From: Candidatus Shapirobacteria bacterium | GTDB taxonomy: Bacteria > Patescibacteriota > Microgenomatia > UBA12405 | Reading direction: 5' to 3' | Length of the DNA: 64,000 bases | Assembly: GCA_016188545.1 (NCBI GenBank) | Contig: JACPHO010000001.1 | Location: 90,774-154,773, forward strand | Part shown: positions 1,533-35,446 of the stretch, in pieces | How the letters are laid out: the number at the start of each line of letters is the position of its first letter | How positions within the stretch are numbered: position 1 is the first letter of the stretch | Translations under genes and position numbers: made by a program | The notes under the pieces: generated by a model | What the model was told of the DNA's origin: nothing | What the model saw: only the letters and a program-made list of their open reading frames with translations | Databases searched by the model: none

Positions 1533-3866
1533 CTATAGTTTTGCTCTCTTCCCAATATCACTCTCGACAATTTCTTTTGGTCGGCCGTATTTTAGTGATG
1601 ACAACTTCTTGATCATTGTCGCCAGCTCCTTGTTTCCTGGTTTTTTGATTTCATCAGCAGTCACGTTTAGTGAAAAAGGTGGCTGAGGGATACCGTTAAC
1701 CATCGTCTTCAAATAAGTATGTCCGATAGGTAAGTTAAGTAAATCGTGTTCGTTAAACTCCGGTTTAAATTGGTTCACCAAAAATGAGGCATCCGAAATA
1801 CCTACTCGAAATGAACAAATCGACCCTACATTTCCAAATACGGCGTTTTTAATCTCGTCATCCATCTGGCTGATAAACTGATTTCCTACCGTCAAATTCA
1901 GATGGTATTTTCTAGCTTCGCTCATAATCACCGCAAAATCCTGGGTGGCAAAATTCTGAAACTCGTCCACATATAGGTAAAAGTCTTTTCGTAGAGGTTC
2001 TGGGGTATCCTGACGGCTCATCGCCGCGATCAATATTTTTGGAATCAACACCAATCCCAAGAATGCTGAATTTTCCTCACCAATGCTACCCTTGGCCAGG
2101 TTAATTATCAAAATCTTTCCCTCATCCATGGCAGTTCTGAAGTTGAACGAACTGGTAGATTGCCCAATGATGTTTCTCATCATGGTATTGGTAATAAACC
2201 GACCAAATTTCGAGACGATGTAATCCAGTACCTCAGATTTATGGAATTCATTGGTATTAGCAATTTGGTCAGTCCAATAGCGCTTCACCATCGGGTCAGC
2301 CACTTTGGGCAACAGTTGTTGGACAAACGATGGGTCAGTCAAACATCGTACGATTTCGATAAAAGTTGCCCCCGGTTCAGCCATCACTGTCAACATTATG
2401 TTTCGGATTGCATGTTCAAATCGAGGTCCCACAATACCTGTTTTATAAGGATCGTACAATTTGTACATCAAGTTAATGATGGATGAGGTCACAAAATCCT
2501 TTTGATCTTCACGTTCACATTCCATGACGTTAAAGCCCATCGGTCGGTCTACCATTCCCGGATCAAAATAAATTACATCCTCAATCCTCTCCGGTGGTAT
2601 CCGTTCTAGTATCATTTCGTAGGTATCGTGAGGATCAATAAAACACACTCCCTTACCAGCCTTGATATCCTGCAGCGCCATATTAGCCAGTAGCCACGAT
2701 TTACCCACACCAGTTTGTCCCACCACATAAAAATGACGCTGCCGGTCTTTGGTGGTTACATGAAATTTTTTCTTAATACCTCGGTAGTGGTTTTCACCTA
2801 TATATATCCCCTCATCAGGACTATCAGTTGGAGCCGGTGCTCCCTTTGCTTTGAGCCAGTAAATATTAGGAGTTTCAATCGTCTTGTTAGGAAAATGAAA
2901 AATCGAAGCAATCTCATCAGAGGACAGAATAGTTTTCCCCTTGTGCCAATAAATGATTGGATATTTGTATATAAAGTCGTCCAAGAAAAATTTTTTGATC
3001 CAGATTTTTCGGCTAGAAAGCTTATTCCAAGGCGACTCGTATTGGCCAAATGTAGCCTTAATATTCGATAAATTCATCTTAGCAGTTTCTTCGTTTGGAG
3101 CAAACGAAACTATTCGGATCGCTGTTTCAAATCCAACTTTACTCGACTTCACATCAATCGCTTCCAGCTGTCGGGCATCGACTTTGTAACTAGCTTTTTC
3201 CGGGTTTGCCTCTGATTTTTTGGTACTTGATACAAACCCCTTTCCTGCTTTTGCCCAGCCTCCATCGGTTGGTGACAGCACCAGCTGTATAGCCATCGTT
3301 TCATTCGCCTCTAGTTTCGACATGGCTGAAGTGATAGTCGATAGGGGATCAGTCGGGATATCTTTGTAGGTTTTAAGTGGAAAGTATGGTGTCTTTTTTA
3401 TTCCCATCCAGGCATACTCTGCCTTACCTTCTTCGGGGTAAATATTTGGCTCTTCTACTTCCTGAACGTCGGCTCCGGCATAGACACTGTAAATCTGTTT
3501 TTCCATAAAGTCTTGAGTCTTTCGTGGAATACAAATATAAAATTTTATATCTTCATGCGTACCGATCATTTCCAAGGACACACTCGGTTGAGCCTGAAAT
3601 CTCTGTAAAAACTTAAACCTAGCGCTTTTATACAAACTAGAAAGCGATCCTAGTATGTGTTCCATAGCATCTATCTTAATTTCATTTTCTTCAGGAACAG
3701 CTACTAAAAGTGTTACCATCTCAAGTGACTTTTCTTCCCTATCTTTCCACTTATACCATAGTACAAATACCGCTAACAAAGCCCATAACAATACTAATAC
3801 CATAACAGTGATCATCAGCATCATCATTGCGTTTGTAGCAAACGCCATCAAAACATCAGGGGTCAT
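1533..3866 (-). CDS. VirB4/TrbE/TraC-like conjugation-type ATPase (FtsK/HerA superfamily), N-terminal TM anchor
   Basis: 777 aa. N-terminal hydrophobic helix. Walker A HFYVVGQTGVGKSW in mid-protein. Walker B-like FYLYVDEFQNF about 260 aa further on. This layout fits VirB4 rather than VirD4. Confidence 0.55.
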   Translation of the reverse strand: MTPDVLMAFATNAMMMLMITVMVLVLLWALLAVFVLWYKWKDREEKSLEMVTLLVAVPEENEIKIDAMEHILGSLSSLYKSARFKFLQRFQAQPSVSLEMIGTHEDIKFYICIPRKTQDFMEKQIYSVYAGADVQEVEEPNIYPEEGKAEYAWMGIKKTPYFPLKTYKDIPTDPLSTITSAMSKLEANETMAIQLVLSPTDGGWAKAGKGFVSSTKKSEANPEKASYKVDARQLEAIDVKSSKVGFETAIRIVSFAPNEETAKMNLSNIKATFGQYESPWNKLSSRKIWIKKFFLDDFIYKYPIIYWHKGKTILSSDEIASIFHFPNKTIETPNIYWLKAKGAPAPTDSPDEGIYIGENHYRGIKKKFHVTTKDRQRHFYVVGQTGVGKSWLLANMALQDIKAGKGVCFIDPHDTYEMILERIPPERIEDVIYFDPGMVDRPMGFNVMECEREDQKDFVTSSIINLMYKLYDPYKTGIVGPRFEHAIRNIMLTVMAEPGATFIEIVRCLTDPSFVQQLLPKVADPMVKRYWTDQIANTNEFHKSEVLDYIVSKFGRFITNTMMRNIIGQSTSSFNFRTAMDEGKILIINLAKGSIGEENSAFLGLVLIPKILIAAMSRQDTPEPLRKDFYLYVDEFQNFATQDFAVIMSEARKYHLNLTVGNQFISQMDDEIKNAVFGNVGSICSFRVGISDASFLVNQFKPEFNEHDLLNLPIGHTYLKTMVNGIPQPPFSLNVTADEIKKPGNKELATMIKKLSSLKYGRPKEIVESDIGKRAKL

Positions 3867-14848: not shown

Positions 14849-16093
14849 GTGTCCAAAAAGTTATTTTTCATAGGTTTTTTCCTCATCTCTATTCTCTATC
14901 TTTTTCTCCGTCTTTGGCAGCTTCCTCAAAAACTCGACTTCCGTCTCGATCAGGCTTTCTTTCTCACCGAGAGTAAGTCGACGATCGAGTCATCCACTCC
15001 GCGACTCCTTGGCCCTCCCACATCTAAAATTTTCGAAGGTCGTAGTTTTTATGTCGGATCTAATTACTATTATCTTTTAGGAGTCATCGGTCACCTCAAC
15101 AGTTGGGATCCTTTAGCTATCACCATCTTTTTTATTATTTTCGAATTCATTTTTTATCTCCTTTTTATATATTTTTTGAGACAAAAATTCGGCATAACTT
15201 CCTCCCTTTTAGTCTTTTGGTTTATTGCGGTATCACCTTATTTAGTCGCCCACAGTCGCTTCTTTTGGAATCCTCATATGTTGATACCATTATCAATTAT
15301 TGCGCTATATAGCCTGGAAAAATATATCGCCACTCATAAATATATTTTCCTGATCCTCGCTTCTTTTGCCTGGGGACTGGCTTTCTCCTGTCACTACAGC
15401 CCTATTTTTTGGCTGCCGATTTTTATCTATTTTTTAATCAAGTCGAAACTATTCATAAACCCGCCCGTCCGGCAGGCGGGTCTTAAATCATACCTCATAA
15501 TTCTTCTAGGCATTTTTATTGGCGATCTGCCTTTTTTCATTTTCGAACTCCGCCATCAGTTTTATAACCTCCGGACATTTTTCTTTGTCTACTCCCATTC
15601 CATCGAAAGCGGGGGACTCACCTCCCACTATTTCATCTTCCCCCTTTTAGTTTTTACTTTTTATTTTTTATTTTTGTTTTTTTCTCACCGTCTTGTTCTA
15701 ATTTCTAGTTTCCTGTTTCTCGTTACTACCTATCAATTCTATCTCTACCCCCACTACCCCTCGCTCGGAGCCGTCGCCGGTTGGGATTATCCCACCCAGG
15801 TCAGAGTCGCTGATTATATAAGTAAAAACTGCCCCTCAAACTTTAACGTTGCCGCCACCATACAAGGGGATACTCGTTTTTATGATTTGCGTTTTTTACT
15901 AGAGAAAAATAATTGTCATCCCGATAGTGTCGATGCTTATCCCACTTCCAAAACATTATTTCTAGTTTCACCCCATGATCGATCTCCTGAAGCCGAGACA
16001 GTTTGGGAAGTCGACTCGCTTCGTCCCTTTACTATCACTTCAAAAACCAAGTTAAACGATTTTCTTGATCTCTATTTCCTCACCCGCCTTTAG
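14849..16093 (+). CDS. polytopic membrane protein, possibly GT-C-fold (ArnT/PMT-like) glycosyltransferase
   Basis: 414 aa with more than 10 TM helices. First predicted loop after TM1 carries an acidic motif (RLDQAFFLTE). Family assignment is weak. Confidence 0.4.
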   Translation: MSKKLFFIGFFLISILYLFLRLWQLPQKLDFRLDQAFFLTESKSTIESSTPRLLGPPTSKIFEGRSFYVGSNYYYLLGVIGHLNSWDPLAITIFFIIFEFIFYLLFIYFLRQKFGITSSLLVFWFIAVSPYLVAHSRFFWNPHMLIPLSIIALYSLEKYIATHKYIFLILASFAWGLAFSCHYSPIFWLPIFIYFLIKSKLFINPPVRQAGLKSYLIILLGIFIGDLPFFIFELRHQFYNLRTFFFVYSHSIESGGLTSHYFIFPLLVFTFYFLFLFFSHRLVLISSFLFLVTTYQFYLYPHYPSLGAVAGWDYPTQVRVADYISKNCPSNFNVAATIQGDTRFYDLRFLLEKNNCHPDSVDAYPTSKTLFLVSPHDRSPEAETVWEVDSLRPFTITSKTKLNDFLDLYFLTRL

Positions 16094-16127
16094 TTAGTCT
16101 CCAATTCGTCTCTGGTTTCTTTTTATC

Positions 16128-16156
16128 GTTTTTACTTTTTACTTTTGAATTTTGTT
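16128..16156. repeat. 29-bp AT-rich direct repeat GTTTTTACTTTTTACTTTTGAATTTTGTT, copy 1
   Basis: Identical 29-mer recurs at 16627-16655. The two copies bracket the 155-aa histidine-phosphatase gene. Each copy abuts the stop codon of a minus-strand gene. Confidence 0.7.
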
Positions 16157-16606
16157 TTTATCATCCTGCATTTCCACTGCCACCATCTGTCCATTCTCCA
16201 ACCGTCTTTTATTATCGTCTTGCAGGTAAGAAATCATTTCAATAGTTGAGAGGTGACTAATTACTAAGATTGTATCGTTTGGCTCATGATCGTATCTTAA
16301 ATCATCCAAAAACAAATCAATCTTATCTTTAAAGTGTTCATAATTCTCACTTTTCTTTTTATGTCCCACTAGGCTAGTTAGGTAAATTGGCATATCATCA
16401 TCGCGTACCCGCAATATTTCATCTAGTGTTTGAATACATCTTGGTTTTGGTGAGCAATATATAGCATCAAATTTCTGGTCTTTCAAACTCTCTGCCAGCT
16501 TTATAGCCTGAACCACTCCAACAGCAGTTAAGTTGTTTTCATCTCCAGCAACTTTATAACCCCGATTATGAGCGGATTCTCCATGTCGGACTAATATCAA
16601 TTTCAT
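16139..16606 (-). CDS. histidine phosphatase (phosphoglycerate-mutase family)
   Basis: N-terminal LILVRHGESAHN (RHG catalytic motif). Confidence 0.85.
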   Translation of the reverse strand: MKLILVRHGESAHNRGYKVAGDENNLTAVGVVQAIKLAESLKDQKFDAIYCSPKPRCIQTLDEILRVRDDDMPIYLTSLVGHKKKSENYEHFKDKIDLFLDDLRYDHEPNDTILVISHLSTIEMISYLQDDNKRRLENGQMVAVEMQDDKNKIQK

Positions 16607-16626
16607 ATGCGCTATTTTACAATATA

Positions 16627-16655
16627 GTTTTTACTTTTTACTTTTGAATTTTGTT
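16627..16655. repeat. 29-bp AT-rich direct repeat, copy 2
   Basis: Identical to 16128-16156. Related TTTTTACTTTTGAATTTTG-like tails follow repeat copies B and C. Confidence 0.7.
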
Positions 16656-16661
16656 CTTACT

Positions 16662-17270
16662 CTACACTTCAACTCCCAGTTTTTTGATCTCTCCCATAAA
16701 TTGCTCAAAATCAGTGTACAAAAAGGCACTTATCCCCACACTTTTAGCCGATTCAACAGTTGGGTCAAAGTCATCGGCAAAGGCGATTTCAGATGCCTCC
16801 ACCCCCGACTTTCGTATCAATTCTTCAAACAATTTTTTATCCGGTTTATTAAATCCGACTTCATACGACAGCGCCCAAGCATCAAAATTATCAAGGAATC
16901 CAAACCGTTTTTGCAATCCGCTTATTCGAGCAGGAAAATTACTACTGCAGATTAGTGTTTTGTATCCCTTCTGTCGAACAGTTTTTACAACTTCTACTAC
17001 ATGTTCATTTGCCTCATATCCCTCTATTAGTAAGTCCATTAATTCAGTCGGTGAGGCACTTATTCTCCACTCAGTTGCCGCCCAGCTCCAAAATTCTTCG
17101 TCGCCCATTTTCCCGGTTTTATAAAGTTCGTTCATTTGTTCGCTTTTCAGAAACACCCTTTTAGCTTCATCTTCACTTACACCATATATTCTTCCCAAAT
17201 TAGCTATAAAATTTTCCTTACCCCTCAGAAAATAAACCCCATCCAAGTCAAAAGTAATTGCTTTTACCAT
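16662..17270 (-). CDS. HAD-superfamily hydrolase
   Basis: Motif I ITFDLDGV (DxDG). Overall HAD-like length. Confidence 0.8.
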   Translation of the reverse strand: MVKAITFDLDGVYFLRGKENFIANLGRIYGVSEDEAKRVFLKSEQMNELYKTGKMGDEEFWSWAATEWRISASPTELMDLLIEGYEANEHVVEVVKTVRQKGYKTLICSSNFPARISGLQKRFGFLDNFDAWALSYEVGFNKPDKKLFEELIRKSGVEASEIAFADDFDPTVESAKSVGISAFLYTDFEQFMGEIKKLGVEV

Positions 17271-18343: not shown

Positions 18344-18390
18344 CTTGAATGATATAATCATCAAGTTCTCGCACATTTAACAATCAATCT

Positions 18391-18682
18391 TCCCCCTTAG
18401 CTCAGTGGTAGAGCGCTCGCCTGTGAATGAAAATCGCAGCTTTCTCAAGTAATTGAGACTGAAACTCCGGAAGAATTCAGGGAAGCCTAAGATACCTTAC
18501 GGTATTATGGTAATCCTGAGCCGATCCCCAACGCAAAGTTGGGGCAGGTGCAGAGACTAGGTGGTACACCGTTTAGCCTCCGGCTCCTGACTATTGTCAG
18601 GATGAAAAGATAGTCCAGGCCTCAATGAAAGTTGAGGATTCCTGTAAGCGATTGGTCCGAAGTTCGAATCTTCGAGGGGGAG
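18391..18682 (+). tRNA. tRNA-Asn(GUU) split by a group I intron between nt 35 and 36
   Basis: Exons 18391-18424 and 18645-18682 fold into a cloverleaf: acceptor UCCCCCU/AGGGGGA, D-arm GCUC-AGUGGUA-GAGC, anticodon stem CUCGC/GCGAU, loop CUGUUAA, T-arm CGAAG-UUCGAAU-CUUCG. It has U1-A72 and discriminator G73. No CCA is encoded. Confidence 0.7.
18425..18644 (+). ncRNA. group I self-splicing intron (small tRNA-type, no ORF)
   Basis: Recognised pairings: P1 exon CUGU with intron GCAG; P2 TCTCAA/TTGAGA; P6 CCCCAA/TTGGGG; P7 GACTA/TAGTC within conserved CAGAGACTA and AAGATAGTCC elements; P8 CCTGAC/GTCAGG; P9 CCTCAA/TTGAGG. Terminal G at 18644. Confidence 0.75.
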
Positions 18683-26949: not shown

Positions 26950-27161
26950 CTAGTCAATATCCACACGTCGCCTTCCCGATTTCCTCTAACGCTGGGGGCA
27001 CTAAAGTACAGAAACAACCACTAAATTTCACAAACGGACAACACAACAAATTAATATTCCCCAGATACATGTAAGGAATTGCGCATACAAACCTTACATC
27101 CCATATGCTGATGTTAGGTTTCATGAAAATTGTCAAAAGAGTTATACTTGTCTTGATTTAT

Positions 27162-28180
27162 ATGATTAAAAAACTACCAGACAATCAAATAGCTTTCTAT
27201 CAAACTCCTGACGGGTCGGTAAATATCGAAGTACTGTTTGCGGAAGAGAATATCTGGCTTACCCAGAAGAAGATGGCTGAGCTTTTCGATTGCTCGATAG
27301 ATAATATTTCGCTTCATTTGAAGAATATTTATCAAGAAAATGAGGTTTATCAAGAGTCAACTATCGAGGAATTCTCGGTAGTTCAAAAAGAGGGAGACAG
27401 AGAAGTTTCCCGAAAGGTTACTTTCTATAGTCTTGAGGCAATTATTGCTGTTGGTTACAGAGTCAGTTCTGAGCGGGGTGCACAGTTTCGCCAGTGGGCA
27501 ACCGGAATTTTGAAAAACTATATCCACAAAGGTTATGTCCTGGATACTAATCGGATGAAGTATGGTTCCCGCTTTAGCGCGAGGTATTTTGACGAGCTTT
27601 ACGAAGAAATTAAGGACATCCGTACCAGTGAACGGATGATCTATCAAAAAATCACTGATATTTATGCCACAGCAGTTGATTACTCGCCACAGGCGTATGA
27701 GAGTAAACAGTTTTTTGCGACTGTTCAAAATAAACTTCATTTTGCCATTACTGGTAAAACCGCCGCAGAAATCATAGTGGAACGTGTCAGCAAAATAGAA
27801 AAGAAAAAATGGGATTGACTTCCTGGAGGCGATCTCCAGAAGGCAAAATTATGCCAAGTGATGTTACAATCGCGAAAAATTATCTGGATAAAAAGGAGCT
27901 GGCTCATCTCAATAGCATCGGCAATATGTATTTGGATTACGCTGAGTTACAAGCCGCTCGTGGCAGAGCTATGACGATGAAAGATTGGGTAGAAAAACTT
28001 AACGCTTTTTTGAAGTTTAGTGAATACGAAATTTTAACCAATGCTGGAAAAATTAGTCATGAAGTGGCCGAGACCTTAGCATTAAAGGAATATGAGGTAT
28101 TTAAAAAAGAGCAGGACAAACACTACATTTCCGACTTTGACAAAGTGGTCAAAAAATTGCTCAAGAGCAAAAATAAATAA
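27162..28180 (+). pseudogene. RhuM-family virulence/defence protein, frameshifted in a poly-A tract
   Basis: N-part QIAFYQTPDGSVNIEVLFAEENIWLTQKKMAELF...VGYRVSSERGAQFRQWATGILKNY. C-part MGLTSWRRSPEGKIMPSDVTIAKNYL...MYLDYAEL lies in the other frame. Restoring one A in GAAAAGAAAAAATGG (about 27795-27809) fuses them. Confidence 0.8.
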
Positions 28181-34144: not shown

Positions 34145-35446
34145 ATGGAAGCAAAATTTACATTTGTTGACTTATTTGCTGGTATCGGTGGCTTTAGGAT
34201 GGCGTTGCAAAGGTGCAGCGGGGAGTGCTTGGGATTTTCCGAGATAGACAAAAATGCCATCGCAACTTATGAAAATAATTTTATCGATTCAGTCTTTGAA
34301 TGGAACTTGGGCGATATAACTAGAGTGGGTAAATTACAAAGTCAGGTGGATATGCTTGTTGGAGGAGTGCCTTGCCAATCATGGTCTGTAGCAGGGAAGA
34401 AACTTGGATTTGACGACCCAAGAGGTAAATTATGGCACGACGCAATAAGATTAGTTGAAATCAATCGTCCAAAAGTTTTCATATTTGAAAACGTTAAGGG
34501 TTTGGCTGATCCGAGAAACAAAAGGAATCTGTTACTTATTGTAAGCGAATTGGAAAAGGCCGGATATTCAGTCGCAAAACCCCAGCTTTTGAACTCGTAT
34601 GATTTCGGACTGCCGCAAAATCGGGAAAGGATTTTTATAGTGGGATTCAGGAACGATGTTAAATTAAAGGTGCCCTTCAGTTATCCGAAACCTATGGGTA
34701 CAACTCCGAGACTTTACTCATTCTTGGATGGAGTAAAAAAATCTGAATTCAAAAAAAGTAAAGTCGATCCGAAAGTCCTATTTGATGGAAAAATACCATT
34801 TTCAAGAAACAAGTTCCAAAAAAGTGATGAGTTGAATGATTTCTTTATCTTTTGTGACACTAGAAATGGTCATTCAACAATTCATTCGTGGGATTTAATT
34901 GAAACATCGGAAAAAGAAAAAAACATTGGCATGACTTTCTTAAAAAATAGAAGGAAAAAAATATATGGAAACAAGGATGGTAACCCAATGTCTTTTGATG
35001 ACTTAAAACGCTTGATTCCGGATTTGACCCACTCTGATTTGACTGGATTGGTTGAAAAGAAAATTATTAGAATTGTCGGTGATAAATTCGACTTGGTTAA
35101 TTCAAAGAACTCATCCGGAATAAATGGTATCTATAGGATTTTCCTTCCCGATTCGAACATATTTTCAACACTTACTGCCACGGGCACAAGGGATCATGTC
35201 GCCACTGAGACGGTAACCGGGGAAAATCCGAAGGAATTCAAGTCCTTATTTATAAAAAACATATACAATGCCGGAAAATATAGGATGCTCACCCCAAGTG
35301 AGGCCGGGCTCTTGCAAGGCTTTGTCGGTTTTAAGCCTCATCCGTCTGCAAGTGTGGCCATGAAACAATTTGGAAATGCCGTGTCGGTAAATGTTGTCGA
35401 AAACCTAATGTTGTCAGTCCTTAAAACGGGTATCTTCGAAAAGTAG
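34145..35446 (+). CDS. DNA (cytosine-5)-methyltransferase
   Basis: Motif I FVDLFAGIGGF. Motif IV GGVPCQSWSVAGK. Motif VI FIFENVKGL. Motif X QFGNAVSVNV. Confidence 0.95.
   Translation: MEAKFTFVDLFAGIGGFRMALQRCSGECLGFSEIDKNAIATYENNFIDSVFEWNLGDITRVGKLQSQVDMLVGGVPCQSWSVAGKKLGFDDPRGKLWHDAIRLVEINRPKVFIFENVKGLADPRNKRNLLLIVSELEKAGYSVAKPQLLNSYDFGLPQNRERIFIVGFRNDVKLKVPFSYPKPMGTTPRLYSFLDGVKKSEFKKSKVDPKVLFDGKIPFSRNKFQKSDELNDFFIFCDTRNGHSTIHSWDLIETSEKEKNIGMTFLKNRRKKIYGNKDGNPMSFDDLKRLIPDLTHSDLTGLVEKKIIRIVGDKFDLVNSKNSSGINGIYRIFLPDSNIFSTLTATGTRDHVATETVTGENPKEFKSLFIKNIYNAGKYRMLTPSEAGLLQGFVGFKPHPSASVAMKQFGNAVSVNVVENLMLSVLKTGIFEK

Follow-up and report, generated by a model that had tools for sequence, protein, structure and literature searches.

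The group I introns of Azoarcus sp. BH72 tRNA-Ile(CAU) and of cyanobacterial tRNA-Leu(UAA) belong to subgroup IC3 and, like the intron described here, are compact (about 200-250 nt), lack an open reading frame (ORF) and lie in the anticodon loop, with the anticodon stem holding the exons and a layout of P1-P2, P4-P6 and P3-P8-P7-P9. In the Azoarcus structure, the GNRA loops L2 and L9 dock on P8 and P5, respectively, and our intron probably makes the same contacts. These two systems differ from it in their insertion sites (36/37 and 34/35, respectively, in other tRNAs), in having no P7.1, and in their core consensus, which is AGAGACUC/AGAGAGUCC in the Nostoc control and AGAGACUA/AGAUAGUCC in our sequence. 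Extra helices between P7 and P3' (P7.1/P7.2) are a structural hallmark of subgroup IA. The phage IA2 introns (T4 td, Twort orf142-I2) share with our intron an extra helix at this place, but their host genes encode proteins, they are larger and often contain a homing endonuclease ORF, and their P7.1 is accompanied by P7.2, whereas our intron has a single P7.1 of 4 bp.

The closest described class is inserted between nucleotides 35 and 36. This site is credited in PMC13011429 (Nakagawa et al., mSystems 2026) to the tFind study, as the first to report it, with the class named Asn.4Ug there; the tFind preprint (Williams 2020, bioRxiv 10.1101/2020.01.27.920355) raised the number of bacterial tRNA intron classes from 4 to 21. 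Among 95 complete Patescibacteria genomes, 15 tRNA-Asn(GUU) and 3 tRNA-Asp(GUC) genes carry group I introns at 35/36, and Asn and Asp introns of this kind self-splice in vitro in a GTP-dependent manner (PMC13011429). For a tRNA-Asn intron from Patescibacteria, the ligated product was sequenced, and an omega-G to C mutant lost ligation. Subgroup IA, not IC, was assigned to 25 of 28 introns at 35/36, and the tables of the same paper class the Asn 35/36 introns of Nitrospirota and Bipolaricaulota as IA1. The authors also report that annotation tools miss the 35/36 genes or call them Thr 33/34, and that intron-bearing and intron-less copies of the same anticodon rarely coexist.

In the window (the whole 64-kb stretch of DNA that we analysed), we identified with high confidence a tRNA-Asn(GUU) gene of a Microgenomates-group Patescibacterium that is split between U35 and U36 by a 220-nt, endonuclease-free group I ribozyme. 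It is a further, moderately divergent example of the class catalogued in Patescibacteria, with which it shares the U1-A72/G73 tRNA-Asn body, the 35/36 site, a P1 formed by CUGU and the guide GCAG with a U.G wobble, a 3' junction of G followed by UAA, the core motifs AGAGACUA ... AUAGUCC, a Patescibacteria host and the habit of being missed or called Thr 33/34 by annotation tools. An initial annotation of this DNA had placed the Asn host and the 35/36 site outside the classical bacterial cases. This is literally true, but the implied novelty does not hold, since the class has already been catalogued and its splicing demonstrated in vitro in the same phylum (PMC13011429).

The 24-mer covering P7 and P7.1 in the published Microgenomatia member GCA_016700135.1 (GUGCAGAGACUAGGUGAGUACACC) is identical in type to that of the window, and the position of P7.1 between P7 and P3' is consistent with subgroup IA. 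Global identity between the window's intron and the published sequences is 55-63%, compared with 52% for an unrelated IC3 intron, and is about 63% with the experimentally spliced homologue; the intron aligns with published members over the full length and has the core motifs in common with them. The window's sub-clade departs from the published class in combining a GUAA L2 with a plain P8, against GAAA and a receptor motif, and from most relatives in P3, where A-U and A/C stand at two positions instead of G-C and U.G. The window's genome does not appear among the 95 complete genomes as given in the tables of PMC13011429.

The split gene and the architecture of its intron

The features of the gene outside the intron core are as follows (all on the + strand).

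18350-18358 (+): TGATATAAT, a probable promoter element of the extended -10 type, some 32 nt ahead of the 5' end of the tRNA (read from the sequence)
18391-18424 (+): 5' exon, 34 nt, with the acceptor 5' strand, D arm, anticodon-stem 5' strand and C32 U33 G34 U35 (ARAGORN, joined exons and intron option)
18425-18644 (+): group I intron, 220 nt, without ORF (RF00028, 69.8 bits; ARAGORN i(35,220); longest ORF 42 aa)
18644 (+): omega-G, last intron nucleotide; no other position allows both a U preceding the 5' splice site and an anticodon loop of 7 nt
18645-18682 (+): 3' exon, 38 nt, with U36 A37 A38, anticodon-stem 3' strand, variable loop, T arm, acceptor 3' strand and G73 (ARAGORN)

With default settings, ARAGORN called no tRNA in the whole 64-kb window, whereas with introns allowed (-i0,400) it returned tRNA-Asn(gtt) with i(35,220) on the genomic DNA. 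The gene is thus hidden from a standard scan, as the initial annotation had anticipated. The joined exons (72 nt) fold into the cloverleaf of a tRNA-Asn(GTT) according to ARAGORN, and they contain the U1-A72 pair, the discriminator G73 and the anticodon loop CUGUUAA that had been read there before. The sequence TCC...GGAG is common to all published Patescibacteria tRNA-Asn in Table S3 of PMC13011429. The cloverleaf has one flaw, C27 facing U43 in the uppermost position of the anticodon stem, and the closest relatives share it. All four pairs of the anticodon stem, which spans both exons, covary in alignments of relatives. CCA is absent from the encoded 3' exon.

The element TGnTATAAT occurs at an equal distance in L013, L046 and L156, despite flanks that are about 50-60% identical; judged by eye, it is the probable promoter of the split tRNA-Asn gene. 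A generic scan around the gene found neither a two-hexamer sigma-70 promoter nor a terminator.

The intron gave a significant match to RF00028 (Intron_gpI) at 18415-18637 (+), which scores 69.8 bits where the gathering score is 50 (E 1.1e-15) and spans model positions 1-253, the full length, and no other Rfam family reached its gathering score in the whole 64-kb window. The precursor folds at -109.5 kcal/mol (z = -5.06 compared with dinucleotide shuffles), and its minimum-energy structure holds the tRNA arms together with P1, P2, P4-P6, P8 and P9. The ORF listing contains no ORF longer than 42 aa overlapping the intron on either strand, which excludes a homing endonuclease inside it. The group I core outlined in the initial annotation (P1 with U.G and a GCAG guide, P2, P6, P7, P8, P9 and omega-G) was found at the described places, and its elements are the following.

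18421-18439 (+): P1, C32 U33 G34 U35 plus G1 A2 (18421-18426) paired with the guide U10 C11 G12 C13 A14 G15 (18434-18439) (cmscan alignment)
18443-18458 (+): P2 hairpin, 6 bp, with the GUAA tetraloop L2 at 18449-18452 (6/6 pairs changed on both sides; 98% paired)
18467-18473 (+): P3 5' strand CCGGAAG, pairing with 18577-18583
18477-18519 (+): P4 (18477-18482 with 18514-18519) around P5/P5a (18485-18511) (broad and sub-type alignments)
18520-18549 (+): P6 (3 bp) and P6a (7 bp, GCAAA loop) (P6 invariant; 7/7 P6a pairs covary)
18553-18559 (+): P7 5' strand G(A)GACUA with bulged A18554, pairing with 18611-18616
18560-18570 (+): P7.1 mini-hairpin GGUG-GUA-CACC between P7 and P3', an insert relative to the Rfam consensus (cmscan)
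18577-18583 (+): P3 3' strand CCUCCGG (pair counting, 46 sequences)
18585-18602 (+): P8 hairpin, 7 bp, an uninterrupted helix, CC:GG (hairpin fold in 46/46 relatives)
18603-18616 (+): J8/7 (UGAAAAGA) and P7 3' strand UAGUCC (cmscan, pair counting)
18617-18643 (+): P9.0 (A18617-U18643, G18618-C18642) around P9 (18620-18637; 7 pairs, closing U.G, GAAA loop L9) (pair counting)

Related split tRNA-Asn genes, at least about 120 in total, were gathered from public genomes and metagenomes. GTDB species, each represented by one genome, were scanned with a pattern covering the D arm, CTGT and GAA on either side of the 5' splice site and the TCGCAGC guide; this yielded 58 loci, about 47 of which are complete split tRNA-Asn genes built in the same way. 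A scan of metagenomes for the P7+P7.1 motif gave at least 120 matches; among those listed, all 76 resolved hosts are U1-type tRNA-Asn(GUU) genes interrupted at 35/36. At least three structural sub-types can be told apart among the relatives, and MAFFT cannot align the P3'/P8 region across them (trimmed alignment A2). The window's sub-type is marked by the 4-bp P7.1 hairpin directly after P7 and is represented by alignment A3, with 46 metagenomic sequences from among the matches listed, in which pairs were counted directly.

When 69 pairs were mapped from the window onto these 46 sequences, 89.8% were paired, compared with 74.0% for shuffled partners (0 of 500 shuffles attained 89.8%). Sliding the partners by 1-3 columns lowered the figure to 34-45%. 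For covariation, the score was 0.424 against 0.134, and 40 pairs had double changes. Nearly all pairs of P2, P6a and P9 covary in this set, while P7, P7.1 and P6 are invariant. Independently, RNAalifold on 33 other relatives recovered the anticodon stem, P1, P2, P4, P5, P6, P7, P9 and a P9.0-like pair, with compensatory changes at 26 of its 43 pairs. The group I core from P3 to P9, including the P3/P7 pseudoknot, is therefore supported by covariation, with P8 supported through per-sequence folding only.

In P1 (CUGU and GA before and after the splice site, opposite UCGCAG), U35 and G12 form the wobble at the 5' splice site. CUGU/GCAG with this U.G is invariant in the 46 sequences, whose selection did not involve P1; the next pair, the first of the intron, covaries (CG 14, GC 13, UA 5, AU 3). 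P3 is 98% paired over the 46 sequences, and three of its positions show double changes; the window has a single A/C mismatch there (18472/18578), where most relatives have U.G. In the window's clade (also L013, L046, L156 and L163), this A/C adjoins an A-U that replaces G-C, and C/U stands at 18391+26/18682-30 (C27/U43). P4 covaries in the broader alignment A1 and is near-invariant in the sub-type alignment A3, and the P5 pairs are kept in both. P7 (G-AGACUA/UAGUCC), which forms a pseudoknot with P3, is invariant in 46/46 sequences (99.6% paired) and is presumed, from the biochemistry of group I introns, to be the guanosine-binding helix. The P7.1 stem is also invariant in the 46 sequences, which were selected on the P7.1 motif. 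P8 is misaligned by MAFFT, and its support comes from folding each of the 46 sequences singly; its compensatory changes among the closest relatives are CCUGAC/GUCAGG, CCCGAU/AUCGGG and CCCGGC/GCCGGG. P9 is 97% paired, with 6/7 pairs covarying, and the second P9.0 pair covaries too (CG 21, UA 9, AU 6, GC 3). Inspection by eye for a P10 pairing of the guide loop with the start of the 3' exon gave nothing convincing; presumably the anticodon stem stands in for P10.

P5 of the window contains CCUAAG (18486-18491) opposite UAUGG (18506-18510), which we take to be the 11-nt GAAA-tetraloop receptor motif and which matches it exactly; L9 is GAAA. In alignment A3 (46 sequences), a GAAA L2 goes with a receptor-like internal loop in P8 (CCUAA...UAUGG) in 17/25 cases, and a GUAA or GCAA L2, the GUAA type being that of the window, with an uninterrupted P8 helix in 19/19. 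This pattern is consistent with a tertiary contact between L2 and P8 whose partners were switched within the family. In the window, L9 (GAAA) probably docks on the P5 receptor and L2 (GUAA) on the P8 helix.

The A/C mismatch in P3 and the C27/U43 mismatch would fit a decaying split pseudogene, in which the intron no longer splices and Asn is decoded by another gene elsewhere in the genome. Both mismatches are clade-wide, however (L013, L046, L156 and L163), and are thus tolerated and not recent damage. The core invariants (P7, J8/7, U.G and omega-G) are all intact, the upstream -10 element is conserved, and identity to syntenic relatives is 96-99% in the exons and 81-85% in the intron, against about 50-60% in the flanks. 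Considering also that intron-bearing and intron-less copies of one anticodon are seldom found together (PMC13011429), we regard a pseudogene as very unlikely and retain the reading of a functional split tRNA-Asn(GUU) gene.

The splice junction and the tRNA-Thr call

Many junctions near the exon boundaries yield some cloverleaf when alternative joins are submitted to ARAGORN, but only one, U35/G1 at the 5' end and G220/U36 at the 3' end, fits the group I rules of a U.G wobble and a terminal G. There U35 pairs as a wobble with guide G12, the intron ends at G18644, and the two bases preceding this G form the covarying P9.0 with bases after P7. The last intron base is G in all relatives with resolved boundaries, although this was a selection criterion and so is not independent; 5 Asp-type and 3 other matches lie outside the resolved set in this tally, and a few boundaries were misplaced. 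A junction with a non-Asn anticodon, which the initial annotation had named as fatal to its reading, can be drawn for Thr(UGU) or His(GUG), but both were rejected for having no U-1 and/or no omega-G, which breaks the splice-site rules.

The Thr(UGU) junction places the same intron at 33/34 of a tRNA-Thr, with the boundary 2 nt off (exon ending in CU, intron running from GU to CC, exon resuming with UGUAAGCG). It is the call that ARAGORN makes, as Thr(tgt) i(33), at about half of the homologous loci, tFind likewise often reports Thr 33/34 for the Asn 35/36 class, and the corresponding join of the window (a18422_b18643) also forms a cloverleaf. With this boundary, however, the intron would end in C18642 instead of a G, and U33 would form a U-A Watson-Crick pair in place of the U.G wobble, while the covarying P9.0 pairs 18617/18643 and 18618/18642 set G18644 as omega. 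The tRNA body speaks against Thr as well: U1-A72 and G73 are hallmarks of bacterial tRNA-Asn, while a tRNA-Thr body has G1-C72 and A/U73, and comparison with the published Patescibacteria tRNA-Asn sequences also places the body in the Asn type. The intron-less tRNAs available for comparing Asn with Thr in the fetched loci numbered 47, of which 1 was Asn and 0 were Thr. In the spliced product sequenced for a homologue, the junction is at 35/36 (PMC13011429). We give the tRNA-Thr assignment next to no credence, and the RF00028 model, ARAGORN, the splice-site rules and covariation agree with the initial annotation on a split tRNA-Asn(GUU) gene with an ORF-less intron between 35 and 36.

Host and inheritance of the intron

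The window is an ordinary bacterial chromosome with dnaG, rpoD and genes for a transketolase, a P-type ATPase, an NAD synthase and others. The closest split genes in the genome scan and among the metagenome matches listed are 83-88% identical to that of the window (L156, L013, L107, L046, L163 and L166). One of them, L046 (split gene 85% identical), is a Candidatus Shapirobacteria MAG of the Microgenomates group of Patescibacteria, and its gene order dnaG-rpoD-ORF-ORF-tRNA recurs in the window and in the metagenome contig L166. Between the window and these two, the RpoD proteins are 91% and the DnaG proteins about 59-60% identical. Because of this match in gene order with its nearest labelled relative, we infer that the host is a Microgenomates-group Patescibacterium related to Candidatus Shapirobacteria.

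The conservation of exons and intron over the flanks, together with the kept TGnTATAAT, indicates that the intron was inherited vertically at a syntenic locus and that the ribozyme is under purifying selection. The intron looks like a fixed passenger, the imprecise loss of which would destroy the anticodon. A recent horizontal acquisition by homing could draw on the HNH endonuclease genes in some Patescibacteria Asn 35/36 introns and on members of the same broad class at Asn 35/36 in Nitrospirota and Bipolaricaulota (PMC13011429), as well as in MAGs labelled Planctomycetota, Omnitrophota and Binatia (genome scan), but it has hardly any probability for this copy. None of its ORFs exceeds 42 aa, its syntenic position is shared by several relatives with a DnaG only about 60% identical to that of the window, and the divergence of the intron (81-85% identity) scales with host divergence.

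The genome and metagenome records contain a few unexpected hosts. Split tRNA-Asn genes of the CPR type occur in MAGs titled 'uncultured Gammaproteobacteria bacterium' (L013, CAZJUH010000004.1; L003, L008, L016, L018, L029 and L047). The label of L013 looks wrong, because its upstream ORF and split tRNA-Asn are common with the Shapirobacteria-like window. The 'Pacearchaeota archaeon' record L036 (JACQLL010000069.1) has a bacterial split gene and is probably mis-binned; mis-binning was suspected for a similar case in the tFind preprint (Williams 2020, bioRxiv 10.1101/2020.01.27.920355). A Candidatus Vecturithrix MAG with a 7.3-Mb contig, a non-CPR bacterium with a large genome, encodes two tandem intron-bearing tRNA-Asn(GUU) genes (L011:4749-5425, -), which lie about 30 nt apart, start about 350 nt apart and carry near-identical introns of 250/251 nt. 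The split genes L013:1058-1353 (+) and L156:630-925 (+) are 87-88% identical to that of the window and their introns score below the RF00028 gathering score, so screens at the Rfam threshold miss members of the class.

In the window, genes for a PMT_2-type glycosyltransferase and a HAD hydrolase lie in the stretch that runs from rpoD to the ORF preceding the tRNA (14849-17270), which in L046 and L166 holds only the homologue of the window ORF at 16139-16606. The window also encodes a tyrosine recombinase/integrase (361-1227), a HerA-like ATPase (1533-3866), a RhuM-family protein (27105-27818) and a C5 cytosine DNA methylase (34145-35446), with many ORFs without a Pfam match interspersed among them. 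These stretches may be mobile-element or defence-related islands.

Proposed splicing pathway and significance

Transcription, probably from the extended -10 promoter, would give a precursor whose tRNA arms fold jointly with the intron. The guide GCAG would pair with exon nucleotides C32-U35 to form P1, with U35 in the U.G wobble, and the P3-P8/P7 and P4-P6 domains would assemble, probably braced by the docking of L9 on P5 and of L2 on P8. For this first step, the sequence and the covariation of its pairs provide the evidence. The later steps are deduced from group I chemistry and from the splicing of homologues in vitro. A free guanosine nucleotide bound in P7 would attack the bond after U35. 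P9.0 would then help to seat the terminal G18644 in the same guanosine site, and the 3'-OH of U35 would attack the bond after G18644, joining U35 to U36 and restoring the anticodon GUU. RNase P, 3' trimming and a CCA-adding enzyme would complete the tRNA, the last being needed since CCA is not encoded.

For annotation, the consequence is that tRNA scans at default settings overlook a tRNA-Asn gene that is present, which deflates completeness estimates of Patescibacteria, and that there is a risk of a false tRNA-Thr(UGU) call. As a gene, the locus is one more, moderately divergent member of a validated class and opens no new question. A role beyond that of a passenger, in which splicing would act as a regulator that ties tRNA-Asn to the GTP or growth state, possibly together with distinct minimal ribozyme architectures in the window's sub-lineage and in relatives without P9, seems improbable to us. 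Such a regulatory role presumes an organism with perhaps a single tRNA-Asn gene; if true, it would give genomes with few protein regulators a regulator at the RNA level, as speculated in PMC13011429. The architectures in question, namely the P7.1 mini-hairpin with the swapped L2/P8 contact and the P9-less relatives, would then be worth structural study. As a minor by-product, the analysis yields a comparative set that could serve ribozyme structure work, with at least about 120 split tRNA-Asn genes, clear covariation that includes P9.0, the co-variation of L2 and P8, and the P9-less variants.

P9 is absent in 21 of the 66 unique metagenomic Asn 35/36 introns of the sub-type among the matches listed. 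In these, the intron ends about 6 nt past P7' (...AUAGUCCAAAAAG followed by UAA of the 3' exon), and a loop of 4 nt closes P1 (CUGU followed by GUUAGCAG). They are 174-193 nt long, reaching below the 184-nt minimum of PMC13011429, and score 62-81 bits with RF00028. Examples are the following, with others among L059-L178.

L151:1549-1739 (-): P9-less intron
L063:514-712 (-): P9-less intron
L091:2696-2893 (-): P9-less intron
L170:267-467 (-): P9-less intron
L061:1113-1315 (+): P9-less intron
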